Shown here: positions 1 through 16,286 of the stretch, piece after piece | Layout: each line of letters begins with the position of its first letter | Numbering within the stretch: the first letter of the stretch is position 1 | DNA from: a virus | Taxonomy: Duplodnaviria; Heunggongvirae; Uroviricota; Caudoviricetes | IMG/VR virus record: IMGVR_UViG_2531839664_000031 | Direction: 5' to 3' (one strand) | Length of the DNA stretch: 17,813 bases | The notes under the pieces: model-generated | Seen by the model: the letters and a program-made list of their open reading frames with translations, nothing else | Database searches by the model: none | Told to the model about the DNA's origin: nothing | Position numbers and translations under genes: made by a program

Positions 1-981
1 AGGCTTCCGCTTATTTGCGAAGGCGGAGTTCGACCGCCTCTGGAAAAAATGATGCCACTGCTGGATAAGCTGCGTGAGCAGTACGGGGTCGGACCGGTAT
101 GCAGCGAACTGCATATTGCCCCGTCAACGTATTACCATTGTCAGCAACAGCGACATCATCCGGATAAACGCAGTGCCCGTGCGCAGCACGATGACTGGCT
201 GAAGAGAGAGATACAGCGCGTATACGATGAAAATCACCAGGTATACGGTGTGCGTAAAGTCTGGCGTCAGTTGTTACGGGAAGGTATCAGAGTGGCCAGA
301 TGCACTGTGGCACGTCTCATGGCAGTTATGGGACTTACCGGTGTTCTCCGGGGTAAAAAGGTCCGCACTACCGTCAGCCGGAGAGCCGTTGCCGCAGGCG
401 ACCGCGTAAACCGTCAGTTCGTGGCAGAACGTCCAGACCAGTTGTGGGTGGCTGATTTTACCTGGGTAAGCACATGGCAGGGCTTCGTTTATGTGGCGTT
501 CATCATTGATGTGTTCGCCGGATACATCGTGGGATGGCGGGTCTCATCATCCATGGAAACGGCATTCGTGCTGGATGCACTGGAGCAGGCGTTGTGGGCC
601 CGTCGGCCGTCCGGCACAATCCACCACAGTGATAAAGGTTCTCAGTATGTATCGCTGGCCTACACGCAGCGGCTTAAGGAAGCCGGCTTACTGGCATCAA
701 CAGGGAGTACTGGTGACTCGTATGACAACGCGATGGCGGAGAGCATCAATGGCCTTTACAAAGCGGAGGTAATACACCGTAAGCGCTGGAAAAACCGTGC
801 AGAAGTGGAACTGGCCACACTAACGTGGGTGGACTGGTATAACAATCGACGATTGCTGGGAAGGCTGGGCCATACTCCTCCGGCAGAAGCAGAAAAAGCT
901 TATTATGCTTCCATCGGAAACAATGATCTGGCAGCCTGAGTTCACAGATAAAACACTCTCCAGGAAACCCGGGGCGGTTCA
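1..981 (+). mobile_element. Partial IS3-family insertion sequence (IS629/IS1203/IS3411-like), 3' portion; the window starts inside the element
   Basis: orfA tail in frame 2 (..FAKAEFDRLWKK, stop 50-52) overlaps the orfB start in the -1 frame at an A6 run (44-49), the usual IS3-family frameshift layout. 296-aa orfB follows. Right terminus ..CCGGGGCGGTTCA ends at 981 (TG..CA-type end). Specific IS name is from memory of the OrfB sequence. Confidence 0.6.
49..939 (+). CDS. IS3-family transposase OrfB (DDE/rve integrase-like catalytic subunit), IS629/IS1203-like
   Basis: 296-aa ORF with typical IS3-family OrfB features: ..QLWVADFTW.., ..HHSDKGSQY.., ..YDNAMAES.. and a C-terminal ..LGHTPPAEAE.. 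tail. Starts in the -1 frame overlapping the orfA stop. Confidence 0.85.
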   Translation: MMPLLDKLREQYGVGPVCSELHIAPSTYYHCQQQRHHPDKRSARAQHDDWLKREIQRVYDENHQVYGVRKVWRQLLREGIRVARCTVARLMAVMGLTGVLRGKKVRTTVSRRAVAAGDRVNRQFVAERPDQLWVADFTWVSTWQGFVYVAFIIDVFAGYIVGWRVSSSMETAFVLDALEQALWARRPSGTIHHSDKGSQYVSLAYTQRLKEAGLLASTGSTGDSYDNAMAESINGLYKAEVIHRKRWKNRAEVELATLTWVDWYNNRRLLGRLGHTPPAEAEKAYYASIGNNDLAA

Positions 982-1143: not shown

Positions 1144-2635
1144 CCACTTCAGAAAGCCAGTTCCGTCAGAAAGACCAGCAACTAAGTCTGGTTGAAGAGA
1201 CGGAGGCCTTCCTGTGCTCTGCACTGGCACGTGCCGAAGAAAAGATCGAAGAAGATGAACGGGAAATAGAACATCTGCAGACTCAGATAGAAAAACTGCG
1301 CCGGATGCTGTTCGGTACCCGTTCTGAAAAACTGCGTCGTGAAGTTGAACAGGCTGAGGCCCTGCTGAAACAACGCGAACAGGACAGCGATCGTTACAGT
1401 GGGCGGGAAGACGCTCCACAGGTTCCCCGCCAGTTGAGACAGCCGCGCCATCGTCGTCCGTTACCGGCACACCTTCCCCATGCAATACACCGTCTGGAGT
1501 CTGAAGAAAGCTGTTGCCCGGAGTGTGGCGGTGAGCTGGATTATCTGGAGGAAGTCAGTGCAGAACAACTGGAACTGGTGAGCAGCGCCCTGAAAGTGAT
1601 CCGCACTGTTCGGGTAAAAAAGCCTGTACAAAATGTGACTGCATCGTTGAAGCACCGGCGCCGTCCCGCCCGATAGAGCGTGGTATCGCGGGCCCCGGAT
1701 TACTTGCCCGCGTGTTAACGGGAAAATACTGCGAACAGCTGCCACTGTATCGTCAGAGTGAAATCTTTGCCCGACAGGGTGTCGAACTGAGCCGTGCATT
1801 ACTCTCCAACTGGGTTGACGCGTGCTGCCAGTTAATGACTCCGCTGAATGATGCCCTGTACCGTTATGTGATGAATACCCGCAAGCTTCACACTGACGAC
1901 ACACCGGTAAAGGTACTGGCACTGGGCCTGAAAAGACGAAAACAGGGCGCATCTGGACGTATGTCCGGAATGATCGCAATGCGGGTTCGTCATCTCCTCC
2001 GGCGGTCTGGTTCGCGTACTCACCGAACCGGCAGGGGAAACACCCGGAGCAACACCTCCGCCCCCTGCAGGCGGATGCGTTCAACGGTTACGATCGGCTG
2101 TTCAGTGCAGAACGTGAAGATGGTGCGCTGACAGAAGTTGCGTGCTGAGCCCATGTCCGGAGAAAAATCCACGATGTATACATCAGCAGCAAAAGTGCGA
2201 CGGCAGAAGAAGCCCTGAAGCGCATCAGTGAACTGTACGCCATCGAGGATGAAATACGGGGATTACCAGAGTCAGAGCGTCTTGAAGTCAGGCAGCAGCG
2301 AAGCAAAGCGTTACTGACGTCGCTGCATGAATGGATGGTGGAGAAGAATGGCACGCTGTCGAAAAAATCCAGACCAGGCGAAGCGTTCAGCTATGTACTG
2401 AATCAGTGGGACGCCCTCTGTTATTACAGTGATGACGGTCTGGCGGAGGCGGACAATAACACAGCGGAAAGAGCGCTTCGTGCCGTCTGTCTCGGGAAAA
2501 AGAATTACATGTTCTTCGGTAGCGATCACGGCGGCGAGCGTGGAGCACTGCTGTACGGGCTGATCGGCACCTGCCGTCTGAACGGTATCGATCCGGAAGC
2601 GTATCTGCGCCATATTCTGAGCGTACTACCGGAAT
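1137..2635 (+). pseudogene. IS66-family transposase (TnpC-like), inactivated by frameshifts and a nonsense codon and truncated at its 3' end by IS3
   Basis: Three consecutive ORFs in frames 0, 2 and 1 (1137-1676, 1712-2131, 2335-2673) together read as one IS66-type transposase: coiled-coil N-terminus with LFGTRSEKL, zinc-finger CPECGG..KACTKCDC, IERGIAGPGLLA, DDTPVKVLA, then ..GKKNYMFFGSD... Frame change at the A6 run 1616-1621, a second near 1925-1945, in-frame TGA at 2146-2148 where Trp is expected (ACWAHVRR context), and the reading frame runs into the IS3 left end at 2636. No ATG start and no tnpA/tnpB upstream. Confidence 0.75.
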
Positions 2636-2700
2636 TGATCTTACCCAGCAATAGTGGACACGCGGCTAAGTGAGTAAACTCTCAGTCAGAGGTGACTCAC

Positions 2701-3000
2701 ATGACAAAAACAGTATCAACCAGTAAAAAACCCCGTAAACAGCATTCGCCTGAATTTCGCAGTGAAGCCCTGAAGCTTGCTGAACGCATCGGTGTTACTG
2801 CCGCAGCCCGTGAACTCAGCCTGTATGAATCACAGCTCTACAACTGGCGCAGTAAACAGCAAAATCAGCAGACGTCTTCTGAACGTGAACTGGAGATGTC
2901 TACCGAGATTGCACGTCTCAAACGCCAGCTGGCAGAACGGGATGAAGAGCTGACCATCCTCCAAAAGGCCGCGACATACTTCGCGAAGCGCCTGAAATGA
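2701..3000 (+). CDS. insE: IS3 transposase OrfA (InsE), HTH DNA-binding subunit
   Basis: 99-aa product [29 protein letters not shown].. with a C-terminal leucine-zipper-like segment. ATG at 2701 (the ORF track starts 3 codons earlier at a GTG). Confidence 0.85.
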
Positions 3001-3862
3001 AGTATGTCTTTATTGAAAAACATCAGGCTGAGTTCAGCATCAAAGCAATGTGCCGCGTGCTCCGGGTGGCCCGCAGCGGCTGGTATACGTGGTGTCAGCG
3101 GCGGACAAGGATAAGTACATGTCAGCAGTTCCGCCAACACTGCGACAGCGTTGTCCTCGCGGCTTTTACCCGGTCAAAACAGCGTTACGGTGCCCCACGC
3201 CTGACGGATGAACTGCGTGCTCAGGGTTACCCCTTTACGTAAAAACCGTGGCGGCAAGCCTGCGCCGTCAGGGACTGAGGGCAAAGGCCTCCCGGAAGTT
3301 CAGCCCGGTCAGCTACCACGCACACGGCCTGCCTGTGTCAGAAAATCTGTTGGAGCAGGATTTTTACGCCAGTGGCCCGAACCAGAAGTGGGCAGGAGAC
3401 ATCACGTACTTACGTACAGATGAAGGCTGGCTGTATCTGGCAGTGGTCATTGACCTGTGGTCACGTGCCGTTATTGGCTGGTCAATGTCGCCACGCATGA
3501 CGGCGCAACTGGCCTGCGATGCCCTGCAGATGGCGCTGTGGCGGCGTAAGAGGCCCCGGAACGTTATCGTTCACACGGACCGTGGAGGCCAGTACTGTTC
3601 AGCAGATTATCAGGCGCAACTGAAGCGGCATAATCTGCGTGGAAGTATGAGCGCAAAAGGTTGCTGCTACGATAATGCCTGCGTGGAAAGCTTCTTTCAT
3701 TCGCTGAAAGTGGAATGTATCCATGGAGAACACTTTATCAGCCGGGAAATAATGCGGGCAACGGTGTTTAATTATATCGAATGTGATTACAATCGGTGGC
3801 GGCGGCACAGTTGGTGTGGCGGCCTCAGTCCGGAACAATTTGAAAACCAGAACCTCGCTTAG
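2997..3862 (+). pseudogene. insF: IS3 transposase OrfB (InsF), frameshifted
   Basis: Two ORFs (2997-3242 and 3248-3862) together read as Ins[23 protein letters not shown].. then ..[27 protein letters not shown]... The first ends ..GYPFT* and the second picks up ..[11 protein letters not shown].. in another frame, consistent with loss of one A near 3237-3240 (TTTACGTAAAAACC, where NVKTVAAS is expected). Confidence 0.8.
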
Positions 3863-4415
3863 GCCTGTGTCCATATTACGTGGGTAGGATCAGCTAACCT
3901 ACATGTGCAAAGCATGAAATTGGCCTCAGATTAATGTTAAGCGTCTTGCCGGACGCGTAATGTTAACTGGGGCTTTTCTCTATCTGCCTTTTGGTGTTCA
4001 TGCCTGAGGCAGATAGCCTCAAGCACCCGCAGCAATTCTAACTATCCAATAGATCAATGCCAACTTCTTTTCCTGCAACATCTCTCATCATAAGTGACCC
4101 AAATTCATCCAATCAGCACAAAAGAAACATTTAAAGCGTGAATGCTACCGAACGTTCATTTCAATTACATCGTTTTGATTTTTAACAGTTTTCACCTCAA
4201 CAAATCAAATGGCATTAGCATTCATCATGGAAGAAAGACTGATAAAAATGATCATTTTCAATGACTTATGATCACACCGGGTATTGCCAAGTCATTCCTT
4301 TTACGCCAGGATACCCACAAGTGAGTAGTCGAGGAGAGTTTGCCAATTTTTGCGATATAAATTTCAATGTCCGAAGAACCATTAATTGTTAATTGATTCT
4401 GTATAAGGTATTAAC

Positions 4416-5513
4416 ATGACAATTTCATATATTCCTATTCTGAAAGCGAAACGTTCTGAGTTATCAGCTTTATCGCAGCTATCCATTGAAAAGAAATCAA
4501 AAATTTTGCCATTACTCGAAATTGAACCAGTGCCAATTGACCCTGATTCAGGTATTGCCTTAAAGAGTTATAACGAGACTCTTATAGAGTTCGGAAAGAA
4601 AGTCTCAAAATCTTGCTCAGATATGCAAGGTGTTTATATTGATGGATTATTAATTGAAGAGCATTTTATTTCTCCTGAAGATCATTACCCTATAATAAAT
4701 GCGGTTAATCAAGTTAGAGATATGGGGATAAGAGTTATTCCTGTCAGTTCACCAACTCGCCCATCTAACTATAAAAGAGCGATTGATGAATTAATGCAGA
4801 ATGAAATATGCTTGAGATTAACCACGTTAGATCTGGTTAACCCACAATTAATAACGCATTACATTAATCATCTGGGAATTCCTTTATCAAATATTGATAT
4901 AATTATTGACTTAAGAGATGAGTTAACCGAGGATAAAATTAATTCCGGCGAACTATATACTTTGGCAATGGGATTGATAAACAATCTGGCGCACCTCAAT
5001 GAATACAGAAAAGTGATTCTTTCTGGGGGTTCATTTCCTACAGATCTCAGTGATATTTCTGTTGGTCTATATTCTCAACCTCGAATCGAGTGGATTTTAT
5101 GGCAGAGTTTAATGAATAGAAAAGAACTTGCCAGAAATGTGATTTATAGTGATTATGGAGTACAGCACCCCGACTTTAATAGGCTTTCGACGCGATTCCC
5201 TAGCGTATCTGCCAGCGTCAGATACTCTGGAGATAATGACTTTTGGGTATTTCGAGGAAGAGTAGCTAATCGCTTTGGTTATGAACAATATGGTAAACAT
5301 AGTGAGGATATTCTTGCTCATCGAGAATATTCAGGGCCTACATTCTGTGCGGGAGATAGAGACATAGAATATTATGCAAACGAGTATCAAGCCTACAAAG
5401 CCAATCCCTCTGGTAACTATAAATTTGGTAGCCCAGAGGTATGGCGTAGGATTGGGCAAAACCATCACATAACTAAGGTTGTTGAGCAACTCGCCACTCT
5501 TTACGGGCTTTAA
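4416..5513 (+). CDS. Uncharacterised 365-aa protein; resembles, from memory, proteins annotated as 'beta family protein' (the sce7725-type partner of sce7726-family proteins)
   Basis: 1.1-kb ORF in AT-rich DNA, which is unlikely by chance. ATG at 4416 preceded by AAGGT at 4402-4406. N-terminus MTISYIPILKAKRSELSAL. Alternating hydrophobic strand-like segments (YIPIL, VYIDGLL, IRVIPV, ICLRL, IDIIIDL, KVILSGG, VIYSDYG) suggest an alpha/beta fold. No recognisable catalytic motif. Family recollection is unverified. Confidence 0.7.
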   Translation: MTISYIPILKAKRSELSALSQLSIEKKSKILPLLEIEPVPIDPDSGIALKSYNETLIEFGKKVSKSCSDMQGVYIDGLLIEEHFISPEDHYPIINAVNQVRDMGIRVIPVSSPTRPSNYKRAIDELMQNEICLRLTTLDLVNPQLITHYINHLGIPLSNIDIIIDLRDELTEDKINSGELYTLAMGLINNLAHLNEYRKVILSGGSFPTDLSDISVGLYSQPRIEWILWQSLMNRKELARNVIYSDYGVQHPDFNRLSTRFPSVSASVRYSGDNDFWVFRGRVANRFGYEQYGKHSEDILAHREYSGPTFCAGDRDIEYYANEYQAYKANPSGNYKFGSPEVWRRIGQNHHITKVVEQLATLYGL

Positions 5514-6051
5514 GTTTAACTCGAACAGCTTCACGAAGCTCGCCAACATCCATACTATTGGCGAGTTTTGACCATAAGACGCGTTTAGGTTTATTTTTCA
5601 AATTCTGTAGCTCCCCTACATCACTTAATAGGGAAAGCAATTCATCTTTCCAAAGAAGCATTGTTAAGGAAAGTTTGTCCACTTGTGGATTCAACTTGCT
5701 AGTTCGAATTGTTTTTAAATGGATACCTTGCCGTGCACCTTGCGTAACTTGCTTTATCCCCCACCATGATGGAACTATGCTTAAAGCATCATAAAGATGG
5801 CAATCAGAGACAACCAAAGTTACTTTATCCATCACTGATGAGTAATGTTGCACCTGCGCTGGTAATCTGAGCAAGTTATCACTCTTGCTCTTCAACTCAT
5901 AACCATGTATAAGCCCATTGATCACTGCTATATCAGCTCTGCTAGCCCCTAGATTCATCGTAAACTCATCAATGATTAGGGTGTCAGGATCTTTATGATG
6001 ATCTCTCAGAATCTTGGCATGCACAGCCTTTCTTACATCAATGTCTCTCAT
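5473..6051 (-). CDS. Uncharacterised 192-aa protein with a PD-(D/E)xK-like nuclease motif; resembles, from memory, 'sce7726 family' proteins
   Basis: Convergent with the 365-aa gene and overlapping its 3' end by 41 nt. Motif ..IIDEF..-..RADIAVINGLIHGYELKSKSD.. fits the D-x11-E-x-K signature of restriction-endonuclease-fold nucleases. Basic C-terminal tail. No clear Shine-Dalgarno before ATG 6051, so the start is uncertain. Confidence 0.6.
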   Translation of the reverse strand: MRDIDVRKAVHAKILRDHHKDPDTLIIDEFTMNLGASRADIAVINGLIHGYELKSKSDNLLRLPAQVQHYSSVMDKVTLVVSDCHLYDALSIVPSWWGIKQVTQGARQGIHLKTIRTSKLNPQVDKLSLTMLLWKDELLSLLSDVGELQNLKNKPKRVLWSKLANSMDVGELREAVRVKLKARKEWRVAQQP

Positions 6052-6373
6052 ACCATAGTTGCGCTTTCATCGACTCTCTCAAGCCATGATTCTATATCAT
6101 GGTTCGCATGAATGCCATTTGATATGACCAGTGGTTAAACATTGCACAGAAAAGTGGATGTGTATTTTAACAAAAGCAATGACGGCTAACCATGTTGGTA
6201 TGTCGATAAAATGTTTCAACGTAAGCATTATCTGTTCCGCCCTTTCGGGCGGCCTCCTGATGTTCTGAGGGTGCAGAAATCCCTCCGGTTAAGGATTAAA
6301 TTTTATTTACAGAACTGAATTTAATTATTCAGATATACGTATCTGTAACCTTACTAACCTACTCACTGGATGC

Positions 6374-6847
6374 CTATTTCATAAAAATAATCCAGTGGGT
6401 TTTATCGTTTTTTCCTGTTCGTTGACCGATAACAGGTTTTCTGTCGGTCAGTGCCAATATCTGGCGAACAGGTATTTGCGTTTCATTCCATTTAAAAATC
6501 AGAACGCCGTATGGACGCAACACACGAAAGGCTTCTTTAAATCCCTGCCGCAAATCATCACGCCAGGTATCTTTATTCAGCCGTCCATATTTCTTTCCCA
6601 TCCTGGCGTTATCACCAACACGCTCAAGATGCGGAGGATCGAATATAACCATCGAAAAAGATGCGTCTGCAAATGGTAGTGCACGAAAATCAGCTATCAG
6701 ATCAGGACTGATAATCAGGCGTCGTCCATCACACAATGTGTGCTCTTCCTTTCTGATATCGCTAAATATCGCCCGGTCGTCATTCTTATCGAACCAGAAC
6801 ATGCGACTGCCACAGCACATATCAAGAATGGTTGCCGGTGCACTCAC
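6374..6847 (-). CDS. Small SAM-dependent methyltransferase-like protein (putative phage DNA methyltransferase)
   Basis: 157 aa. Motif I-like LDMCCGS near the N-terminus and motif IV-like FDPPH (DPPY/H type) about 60 residues later. GTG start with AGGAGG 6-8 nt upstream, overlapping the stop of the upstream gene by 4 nt. Confidence 0.6.
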   Translation of the reverse strand: MSAPATILDMCCGSRMFWFDKNDDRAIFSDIRKEEHTLCDGRRLIISPDLIADFRALPFADASFSMVIFDPPHLERVGDNARMGKKYGRLNKDTWRDDLRQGFKEAFRVLRPYGVLIFKWNETQIPVRQILALTDRKPVIGQRTGKNDKTHWIIFMK

Positions 6848-7260
6848 TGCGCTACCTCCTGAAAATTACCCTGATAGAAAGCCAGTACACGCTGCATAGC
6901 TTCGCTCTTCCGGCACTCGCGACAGATTATATTCAGGCGCCTGTCGTAGCGGCGTATTTCTCCGTCTGGTAATGAATAAACCAGGTCCGGGTCGCTCTTT
7001 TTTTTCACTGCTGCTTTCGACATCTTTTTGCGGGCCTTTATCCAGTCCTTACGTGCCTGTTCAGACGGAAATAACCCGTAGCCGGAGTTGTATAAATCGC
7101 CACTGGCAACCAGCTCTCTGGCAAGAACACTCATCAGATATCTTGTCGCACCTGTCTTGGCTTCCAGTTGCCGTAACGTCTCGCGACCGCTCAGACGTAC
7201 AAGTTCAACAACCTGCCCTTTAATTTTTTCCCGCTCTTCTGATGTAAATACTTTTGCCAT
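6844..7260 (-). CDS. Hypothetical prophage protein (138 aa from ATG 7260)
   Basis: Translationally coupled within the minus-strand operon. GGAGG 5 nt upstream of ATG 7260 (the track ORF starts 5 codons earlier at TTG). Basic, lysine-rich central segment; no motif recognised. Confidence 0.55.
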   Translation of the reverse strand: MAKVFTSEEREKIKGQVVELVRLSGRETLRQLEAKTGATRYLMSVLARELVASGDLYNSGYGLFPSEQARKDWIKARKKMSKAAVKKKSDPDLVYSLPDGEIRRYDRRLNIICRECRKSEAMQRVLAFYQGNFQEVAQ

Positions 7261-15889: not shown

Positions 15890-16084
15890 ATGAGATATGA
15901 CAATGTTAAACCATGTCCATTTTGTGGTTGTCCATCAGTAACGGTGAAAGCCATTTCAGGATATTACCGAGCGAAGTGTAACGGATGCGAATCCCGAACC
16001 GGTTATGGTGGAAGTGAAAAAGAAGCACTCGAAAGATGGAATAAACGAACCACTGGAAATAATAATGGAGGTGTTCATGTATAA
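15890..16084 (+). CDS. ralR: RalR (Lar), restriction-alleviation protein, reported as the toxin of a type I toxin-antitoxin pair
   Basis: 64 aa from ATG 15890 (MRYDNVKPCPFCGCPSVTVKAISGYYRAKCNGCESRTGYGG..), with a C-x2-C ... C-x2-C zinc-ribbon pattern. A partner antisense sRNA (RalA) is expected nearby, but I could not place it from sequence. Confidence 0.85.
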   Translation: MRYDNVKPCPFCGCPSVTVKAISGYYRAKCNGCESRTGYGGSEKEALERWNKRTTGNNNGGVHV

Positions 16085-16286
16085 AATTACCGCCACTATT
16101 GAAAAGGAAGGTGGCACTCCTACTAACTGGACAAGATATTCAAAATCTAAACTAACGAAATCAGAATGCGAAAAAATGCTCTCAGGTAAAAAAGAAGCAG
16201 GCGTTTCCAGAGAGCAGAAAGTAAAACTGATAAATTTTAATTGCGAGAAACTTCAGTCCTCGAGAATTGCATTGTATTCAAATTAA
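16077..16286 (+). CDS. ydaC: YdaC, small Rac prophage protein (69 aa)
   Basis: ATG 16077 with GGAGG 6 nt upstream, overlapping the ralR stop. MYKITATIEKEGGTPTNWTRYSKSKLTKSECEKML.. Confidence 0.8.
   Translation: MYKITATIEKEGGTPTNWTRYSKSKLTKSECEKMLSGKKEAGVSREQKVKLINFNCEKLQSSRIALYSN

Follow-up and report, generated by a model that had tools for sequence, protein, structure and literature searches.

Why should two neighbouring prophage genes, read towards each other from opposite strands, use the same DNA for both of their ends, and is the shared stretch a property of the gene pair or a product of annotation? The question is raised by a stretch of 17,813 nucleotides (nt) from a Caudoviricetes record (IMG/VR IMGVR_UViG_2531839664_000031), called the window in the following, which belongs to a Rac-like lambdoid prophage of Escherichia coli O121:H19 and which carries a beta-family gene and an sce7726-family gene in tail-to-tail arrangement. 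As judged from the homologues of both proteins, the overlap is genuine dual coding, with both reading frames under purifying selection. The features that carry this argument are as follows.

4416..5513, plus strand: beta-family gene (365 amino acids, aa), predicted TIM-barrel; open reading frame (ORF) list, Pfam PF14350, PADLOC PD-Lambda-2_C, name given by the Prokaryotic Genome Annotation Pipeline (PGAP), AlphaFold.
5473..6051, minus strand: sce7726-family gene (192 aa; ORF list), homologue of P4 cII, predicted PD-(D/E)XK nuclease fold.
5473..5513, no strand assigned: 41-nt tail-to-tail coding overlap; sequence reading, with the phase given by an overlap length of 2 mod 3.
5463..5513, no strand assigned: conserved dual-coding core; spacing of the Trp and His codons, CCA on the beta strand, third-position conservation.

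The overlap of 41 nt and its coordinates, as given by the initial annotation, were borne out by the ORF list, by base reading and by the RefSeq annotation. Both stop codons are counted in the 41 nt, the beta stop TAA occupying 5511-5513 and the sce7726 stop TAG being the reverse complement of 5473-5475, and the same nucleotides are used by beta codons 353-365 and sce7726 codons 180-192. The 3' end of beta reads ACT AAG GTT GTT GAG CAA CTC GCC ACT CTT TAC GGG CTT TAA, and that of sce7726 reads CTT AAA GCC CGT AAA GAG TGG CGA GTT GCT CAA CAA CCT TAG, in a phase that sets position 3 of the beta codons opposite position 2 of the sce7726 codons, position 2 opposite position 3, and position 1 opposite position 1. 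Since the overlap is defined by the stop codons alone, no choice of start codon can create it; and since each stop lies inside the other gene, the transcripts are complementary over at least 41 nt by geometry, so that the obligatory transcript overlap claimed at the outset also holds. RefSeq/PGAP lists the identical two genes in E. coli O121:H19 as WP_000156213.1 ('beta family protein') and WP_001204666.1 ('sce7726 family protein'). The slightly longer core at 5463-5513 encodes all conserved C-terminal residues of both proteins, namely H350-H351 ... L359 A360 T361 L362 ... L365 on the beta side and, on the antisense side, K181 (5509-5511), R183 (5503-5505), W186 (5494-5496) and R187 (5491-5493) of sce7726.

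The initial annotation had also allowed that one of the two annotated C-termini is not real, in which case that tail would not be translated as annotated and the true protein would end before the overlap. Long overlaps are often misannotations that arise through 3' extensions (PMC2478687), and the predicted disorder of the last three sce7726 residues would suit such an artefact; the homologues argue against it on both strands. Their lengths agree, with 189-193 aa for sce7726 and 365-367 aa for beta in the closer relatives, most sce7726 proteins measuring 186-206 aa overall and the beta proteins 350-374 aa, except for two fragments and one 409-aa call. The C-terminal motif of sce7726 is LKxRxxWR; in an alignment of 34 of these proteins, the most distant at 46% identity, K181 and R183 never vary and W186 is conserved to 90% or more. 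That of beta is HHITKVVxQLAxLYGL; 29-30 beta proteins, with identities as low as 21-25%, all have H351, and H350, I352, T353 and L359 are conserved to 90% or more, as is L362 in one of the two beta alignments. The family profiles reach within 8-9 residues of both protein ends, the overlap is set by stop rather than start codons, and both tail motifs persist where they are separately encoded. By these comparisons both C-termini are real and the overlap is no chance extension of an ORF, so that the alternative of an unreal C-terminus is rejected as hardly credible.

The arrangement is retained far beyond E. coli. The sce7726-seeded survey, based on one genome per species, covered 80 loci in at least ten phyla, which were scored by profile search of stop-to-stop ORFs; a convergent beta gene was detected in 77 of them and overlapped sce7726 in 75 of these 77, and two of the three loci without a convergent beta end at a contig edge. 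When the 77 loci were taken together with the window, its RefSeq copy, P4 and the Gordonia phage Powerball, all 81 pairs proved convergent and 78 overlapped by 11-167 nt, every one of the 78 in one phase (length 2 mod 3), and the Trp codon of sce7726 stood exactly 28 nt from the invariant His codon of beta in 69 of the 81. The beta-seeded survey of IMG/VR gave a convergent and overlapping pair in 50 of 55 loci, again all 50 in this phase, whereas in the remaining five the beta gene is truncated or the contig ends at the locus. After removal of near-duplicates (<90% identity kept), 82 beta genes remained, each of which has a convergent sce7726 partner (82/82), with an overlap in 79 (11-158 nt, median 44) and a single phase throughout. 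The earlier remark that such an arrangement is unusual for partner genes thus holds for gene pairs generally, but here it is the norm. Overlapping pairs were observed in Pseudomonadota, Bacillota, Myxococcota, Acidobacteriota, Chloroflexota, Patescibacteria, Gastranaerophilales, Gemmatimonadota, Armatimonadota and Thermodesulfobacteriota, with Actinomycetota represented by a phage, and the register is kept at about 40% sce7726 identity and down to 26% beta identity. An independent annotation of Powerball gives an 89-nt convergent overlap of both homologues, and ORF calling at a Desulfosporosinus locus, taken as a spot check, agrees with the survey scoring.

Several loci met in the surveys are recorded here in their own right. 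The E. coli prophage contigs L096, L097 and L106, whose pair is 99% identical to that of the window, have an earlier sce7726 stop and an overlap of 35 nt. An identical locus occurs in metagenome-assembled genomes labelled Bordetella, Bradyrhizobium and Afipia (L023-L028, L032), and a 'Nocardiopsis' contig (L072) is nearly identical to Stenotrophomonas loci, which suggests that contigs were contaminated or mis-binned or that the locus was transferred very recently; the counts were made after de-duplication of these loci. More distant sce7726-like genes, with 28-35% identity, are present in Myxococcus phage Mx4 (L004) and in Bacillus phages, and Mx4, the sole phage context examined for these distant genes, has no adjacent beta, so that obligate pairing is limited to the closer clade.

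The two frames leave complementary marks on the shared nucleotides. Opposite the Trp codon TGG of sce7726 the beta strand can only read CCA, which restricts beta codon 360 to NCC and the first base of codon 361 to A; position 360 holds A or S (GCC/TCC), position 361 holds N, S, T, K or I, and CCA is found on the beta strand in 64 of 66 distinct core sequences in the standard register. In the 76 overlapping genes of the non-redundant set, entropy among the 337 third-position columns of beta is lowest at codons 360 and 359 (0.20 and 0.68 bit), which lie opposite the Trp-Arg codons of sce7726; every other column reaches at least 0.94 bit, and the third-position C of codon 363, opposite the invariant Arg183 of sce7726, is kept as well. 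The codons co-vary by the genetic code in both frames, CTC/ATC and GCC/TCC going with CGA/AGA and TGG. Where the overlap is reduced (L016-19), the constraint on beta relaxes to QLTRLAQ or QLNLLSQ, and beta genes without an sce7726 partner have an altogether different C-terminus in which the overlap constraint is relaxed; those of the IMG/VR loci L146, L148 and L153 end in HHxxxxxxE(V/I)xxF, not in QLAxL, and serve as a natural control. Synonymous sites of beta are held by sce7726 residues, and L359 and L362 of beta itself are kept too, from which the dual coding follows.

A few lineages have undone the overlap. The clade of Pectobacterium, Pantoea, Klebsiella and Edwardsiella (L016-L019, about 4513-4638) carries a 39-nt tandem duplication of the core, whose proximal copy is kept by sce7726 (LKKRVDWK); directly after the sce7726 stop follows a decayed in-frame second copy (VKFEPIW, with Lys and Trp in place), which now belongs to beta only, and the leftover overlap is 11 nt. 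Gaps instead of an overlap were observed in P4 (27 nt), in L014 from Xenorhabdus (39 nt) and in L015 (14 nt), L014 having lost the C-terminal helix of beta, the C-terminus of which is apparently degraded. Escapes of this kind are rare, with three of the 82 pairs lacking any overlap and one clade reduced to 11 nt, and the pattern indicates that the overlapping state is ancestral and its separation derived and rare. Degraded or rearranged modules were also noted: L013 (Xenorhabdus) has no beta, L116 (IMG/VR) has a truncated beta with sce7726 1.2 kb away on the same strand, and L118 (IMG/VR) has a truncated beta, sce7726 not being found there.

Both products are recognisable members of their families. 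The beta protein matches the Pfam family Beta_protein (PF14350) with 3.8e-52 and 178.3 bits (gathering threshold 27), residues 5-356 of 365 covering profile positions 1-341 of 342; no match to an NCBIfam model for beta or 'sce7725' was obtained in the window, P4 or Sorangium beta proteins. The sce7726 protein reaches 191.1 bits on NCBIfam NF033832 (curated cutoff 70), residues 1-184 of 192 aligning with profile positions 1-183 of 184, and 2.4e-28 on the PADLOC 'cll' model, which was built on P4 cII and on which P4 cII itself scores 3.2e-113. The AlphaFold models are confident, with predicted local distance difference test values of 93.5 (beta) and 93.8 (sce7726), and according to them the last helix of beta spans residues 340-362, its second half being encoded by the overlap, the sce7726 strand of which encodes the end of the last helix and a short tail. 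A restriction-endonuclease-like fold with a D...(D/E)xK motif is predicted for sce7726, and D40, E52 and K54 are invariant; the protein is putatively an active nuclease. Foldseek gave for beta only generic TIM-barrel matches and no specific relative among solved structures. The P4 homologue of beta is described as an antitoxin in the PD-lambda-2 paper (PMC9519451); the invariant residues K12, E15, D76, R115, R134, D165, D246, R269 and H351 of beta suggest an enzyme or a ligand-binding site and not a simple antitoxin.

Relatives of the pair belong to two anti-phage systems. One of them, gop-beta-cII of satellite phage P4, was reportedly described by Ghisotti and colleagues in 1990. It gives protection from lambda and P1 and resembles a toxin-antitoxin system (Rousset et al. 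2022, PMC9122126), and its cell-death activity is triggered by the phage gene orf184 (10.1101/2023.04.06.535777). P4 resembles the window in its homologous Beta_protein beta, in a cII that RefSeq assigns to the sce7726 family (28% identity to the sce7726 of the window), in the convergent, tail-to-tail order of the two genes and in its position in a mobile-element hotspot. According to the RefSeq record and the sequence, the P4 order is gop (plus), beta (plus), cII (minus), whereas the window lacks gop, and P4 has no coding overlap and instead a 27-nt gap with an annotated terminator hairpin; P4 cII differs further in its 264 aa, a long extra C-terminal region and IKNRYHA in place of LKxRxxW, the Trp being lost. 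By the composition of the PADLOC system Rst_gop_beta_cll, beta and a convergent cII are present in the window, but gop is not: the longest ORF in 3863-4415, upstream of beta, has at most 43 aa, and the best tblastn match of P4 Gop to the window has an E-value of 0.44.

The second system, PD-lambda-2, consists of a HigB-like A, an Xre-peptidase B and a beta-like C (Vassallo et al. 2022, PMC9519451), of which C is needed for defence and not for toxin neutralisation (PMC9519451); the region cloned from ECOR42 is QOYB01000002 228989-232396. The beta of the window scores far better on the PADLOC model PD-Lambda-2_C (1.8e-41) than on the P4 'beta' model (2.1e-4, residues 4-40), so that component C is present, but neither the HigB-like A nor the Xre-M78 peptidase B was detected in the window by tblastn from related loci (E-values of at least 1.1), and no suitable upstream ORFs were found. 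Lacking gop, a HigB-like gene and an Xre-peptidase, the window thus holds neither a complete gop-beta-cII nor a complete PD-lambda-2. Elsewhere the link to PD-lambda-2 is closer, with a B-type Xre-M78 peptidase preceding beta in 16 of 80 genome loci (L022, L040, L044, L046, L049, L054, L060, L061, L076-L080, L082, L084, L161), nine of which also carry a HigB-type A. In all 16 the sce7726 gene is still convergent and overlapping, which makes them a four-gene PD-lambda-2-like variant, whereas sce7726 is absent from the published three-gene system and from the PADLOC models.

Convergent arrangements with overlapping ends are known from other settings. Conserved convergent overlapping gene pairs of prokaryotes were reportedly treated by Rogozin and colleagues in 2002. 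At the type I toxin-antitoxin loci txpA/RatA and bsrG/SR4 of Bacillus subtilis, the toxin mRNA and the antitoxin RNA overlap at their 3' ends, which likens them to the present pair as convergent units with complementary 3' ends, except that one partner is non-coding there and both are protein-coding here. Control by antisense or convergent transcription occurs in restriction-modification and toxin-antitoxin systems, such as EcoRI, with its reverse promoters, and Eco29kI (review PMC12707154); these likewise place a nuclease-type gene and its partner under opposing transcription, for which collision, antisense duplexes and delayed or bistable expression have been proposed. They differ from beta/sce7726 in that their antisense promoters are located within or next to the genes, coding is not shared and no homology exists, and in that regulation of this kind at beta/sce7726 itself is putative. 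Convergent overlaps make up 7% of well-characterised overlaps, and the real long ones are mostly conserved in very close species only (Palleja et al. 2008, PMC2478687). The phase found here, 'phase 1', is the commonest among longer natural convergent overlaps according to a 2025 preprint (10.1101/2025.11.07.687268) and is in itself ordinary for that reason; the pair shares the tail-to-tail, stop-defined geometry of known convergent overlaps and is set apart from them by a register kept across at least ten phyla.

Within the prophage, the two genes occupy a cargo position, the flanks at 3893-4040 and about 6203-6898 recurring around different cargo in thousands of E. coli prophages, and the complete beta/sce7726 pair was found in 93 genomes. 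Three further features were recorded around the genes.

4040..6200, no strand assigned: two-gene cassette, approximate limits, about 2.1 kb; variable slot of lambdoid (Rac-like) prophages.
5537..5569, plus strand: candidate intrinsic terminator for the beta transcript; 10-bp hairpin, 11-nt loop, then UUUU.
6089..6118, minus strand: promoter-like -35/-10 pair ATGGCA-18-TAGAAT upstream of sce7726; consensus match.

The candidate terminator, which was found by folding (core CUCGCC/GGCGAG, -13 kcal/mol) and missed by the consensus terminator scanner, lies inside the sce7726 coding sequence and begins 24 nt past the beta stop. The consensus scan detected no intrinsic terminator inside the overlap, and the hairpins found by folding all lie outside it. 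Terminator-like sites past the sce7726 stop were not enriched (8 vs 3), and promoter-like sites in the region were no commoner than in shuffled sequence. The Rfam search of the window gave no family in the overlap and matched only sok, RalA and ALIL, all elsewhere. The sok/hok-leader match (3858-4028, minus strand) is separated from hokD (about 2442-2597, minus strand) by an IS3 element with its transposase coding sequence at about 2700-3862, so that a hok/sok type I toxin-antitoxin locus (window 2442-4028) appears to have been split by the IS3 insertion. The other two matches are a full-length RalA antitoxin small RNA of the Rac RalR/RalA system (16083-16261, minus strand, 225 bits) and an ALIL frameshift pseudoknot of another IS3-family element (8-123, plus strand).

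What, then, keeps the overlap in place? We lean slightly towards the explanation that in this mobile module of two genes the dual-coding segment is ancestral, links the genes and couples their expression antagonistically. Shared codons would make the two genes inseparable by recombination or deletion without damage to both, and they would be inherited as a unit. With no space for an intergenic terminator, and with both genes presumably transcribed across the overlap, RNA polymerases from the two promoters would cross the same DNA head-on and the mRNAs would have complementary 3' ends of at least 41 nt, or about 100 nt if the 5537-5569 hairpin terminates the beta transcript. Polymerase collision, a duplex of the mRNA 3' ends, or both could then couple the expression of beta and sce7726 antagonistically, which would suit a module of the toxin-antitoxin-like or abortive-infection class to which the relatives gop-beta-cII and PD-lambda-2 belong, and the pair may share their role in defence against phage. 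In another reading, conservation acts first on a signal in the RNA or DNA (a protein-binding site, say, or a bidirectional terminator), and the apparent conservation of the proteins is secondary to it. In favour of this are the folding of the region, which exceeds that of shuffled sequence (z = -3.8 for the plus strand, -2.0 for the minus strand), and the terminator hairpin of P4 at the equivalent junction. This reading is very improbable, since the variation obeys the genetic code in both frames, with amino-acid classes kept and codons co-varying, the hairpins fall outside the overlap at positions that are not conserved, and the overlap itself is without an Rfam match.

A far more serious competitor is a frozen accident, in which the overlap arose once, for example by stop loss and extension, and persists only because both protein tails are structurally needed, with no role in regulation or linkage, the convergent transcription being tolerated. 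Quite possible if short of probable in our estimate, such neutral entrenchment is the main and a strong rival, and the present data do not separate it from antagonistic coupling. Register and phase are fixed while the length of the overlap varies freely with the stop position (11-167 nt), as if only the protein motifs were selected, and a fixed register and phase is what entrenchment also predicts, because indels in the core damage two conserved segments at once. Escape needs a rare duplication, and escapes do exist, in the 39-nt duplication of L016-19 and the gaps of P4, L014 and L015. Further observations weigh against a regulatory role of the overlap. P4 protects against lambda and P1 despite its 27-nt gap with a terminator between beta and cII (PMC9122126), so that the overlap is not required for function in the P4 lineage, which favours entrenchment. 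Of the 82 loci, 26 have a terminator-like site at 48-106 nt past the beta stop and 12 have one on the opposite strand, a modest enrichment (p = 0.015) of sites whose position is not conserved, and such hairpins would limit antisense read-through and not exploit it. A peptidase-seeded search recovered three-gene PD-lambda-2-like loci in IMG/VR (L146, L148, L153) with beta and without sce7726, two of which (L148, L153) have a classical hairpin terminator after the beta stop, so that the beta family is wider than its sce7726-linked clade; and both surveys cover the clade near the proteins of the window (39% identity or more for sce7726; search patterns for beta drawn from that clade), not the whole families. 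On the other side, a frozen accident does not readily account for a convergent orientation kept in 82 of 82 non-redundant pairs, those without overlap included, nor for escapes that are few although the proteins have come to share only about 40% identity, and the most distant beta genes 26%.

The gene families and the convergent order in P4 are already known; the overlap stands out by how deeply and precisely it is conserved and by its link to the core of defence systems. The searched open-access literature on sce7726, PF14350, gop-beta-cII and PD-lambda-2 contains no mention of a conserved overlap, nor were the gop-less two-gene form or sce7726 as a fourth PD-lambda-2-like gene found in the searched open-access literature. 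A convergent overlap of 41 nt, usually a sign of misannotation, is here real and selected in both frames, by the comparisons above, and it offers a natural model for two proteins that co-evolve on one stretch of DNA, with P4 and the clade of the 39-nt duplication as un-overlapped controls. For the two validated anti-phage systems the unit would be redefined, beta and cII/sce7726 forming an obligately linked core in the surveyed clade, with sce7726 as an unrecognised fourth, convergent gene in many PD-lambda-2-like loci and with a gop-less two-gene form in a prophage cargo slot of the Shiga-toxin-producing E. coli O121 and O103 lineages. As a tentative and on balance unlikely extension, the pair may be an unrecognised self-contained immunity or addiction core, composed of a nuclease and a TIM-barrel, in which the relative dosage of the partners would depend on head-on transcription and on mRNA pairing across the dual-coding 3' segment, and which would have been kept across at least ten phyla while being recombined with gop or HigB/Xre-peptidase toxin modules. 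If that is true, few antiparallel coding overlaps known from bacteria would match that of beta/sce7726 in depth of conservation, and the pair would represent a protein-coding analogue of the 3'-overlapping type I toxin-antitoxin loci.

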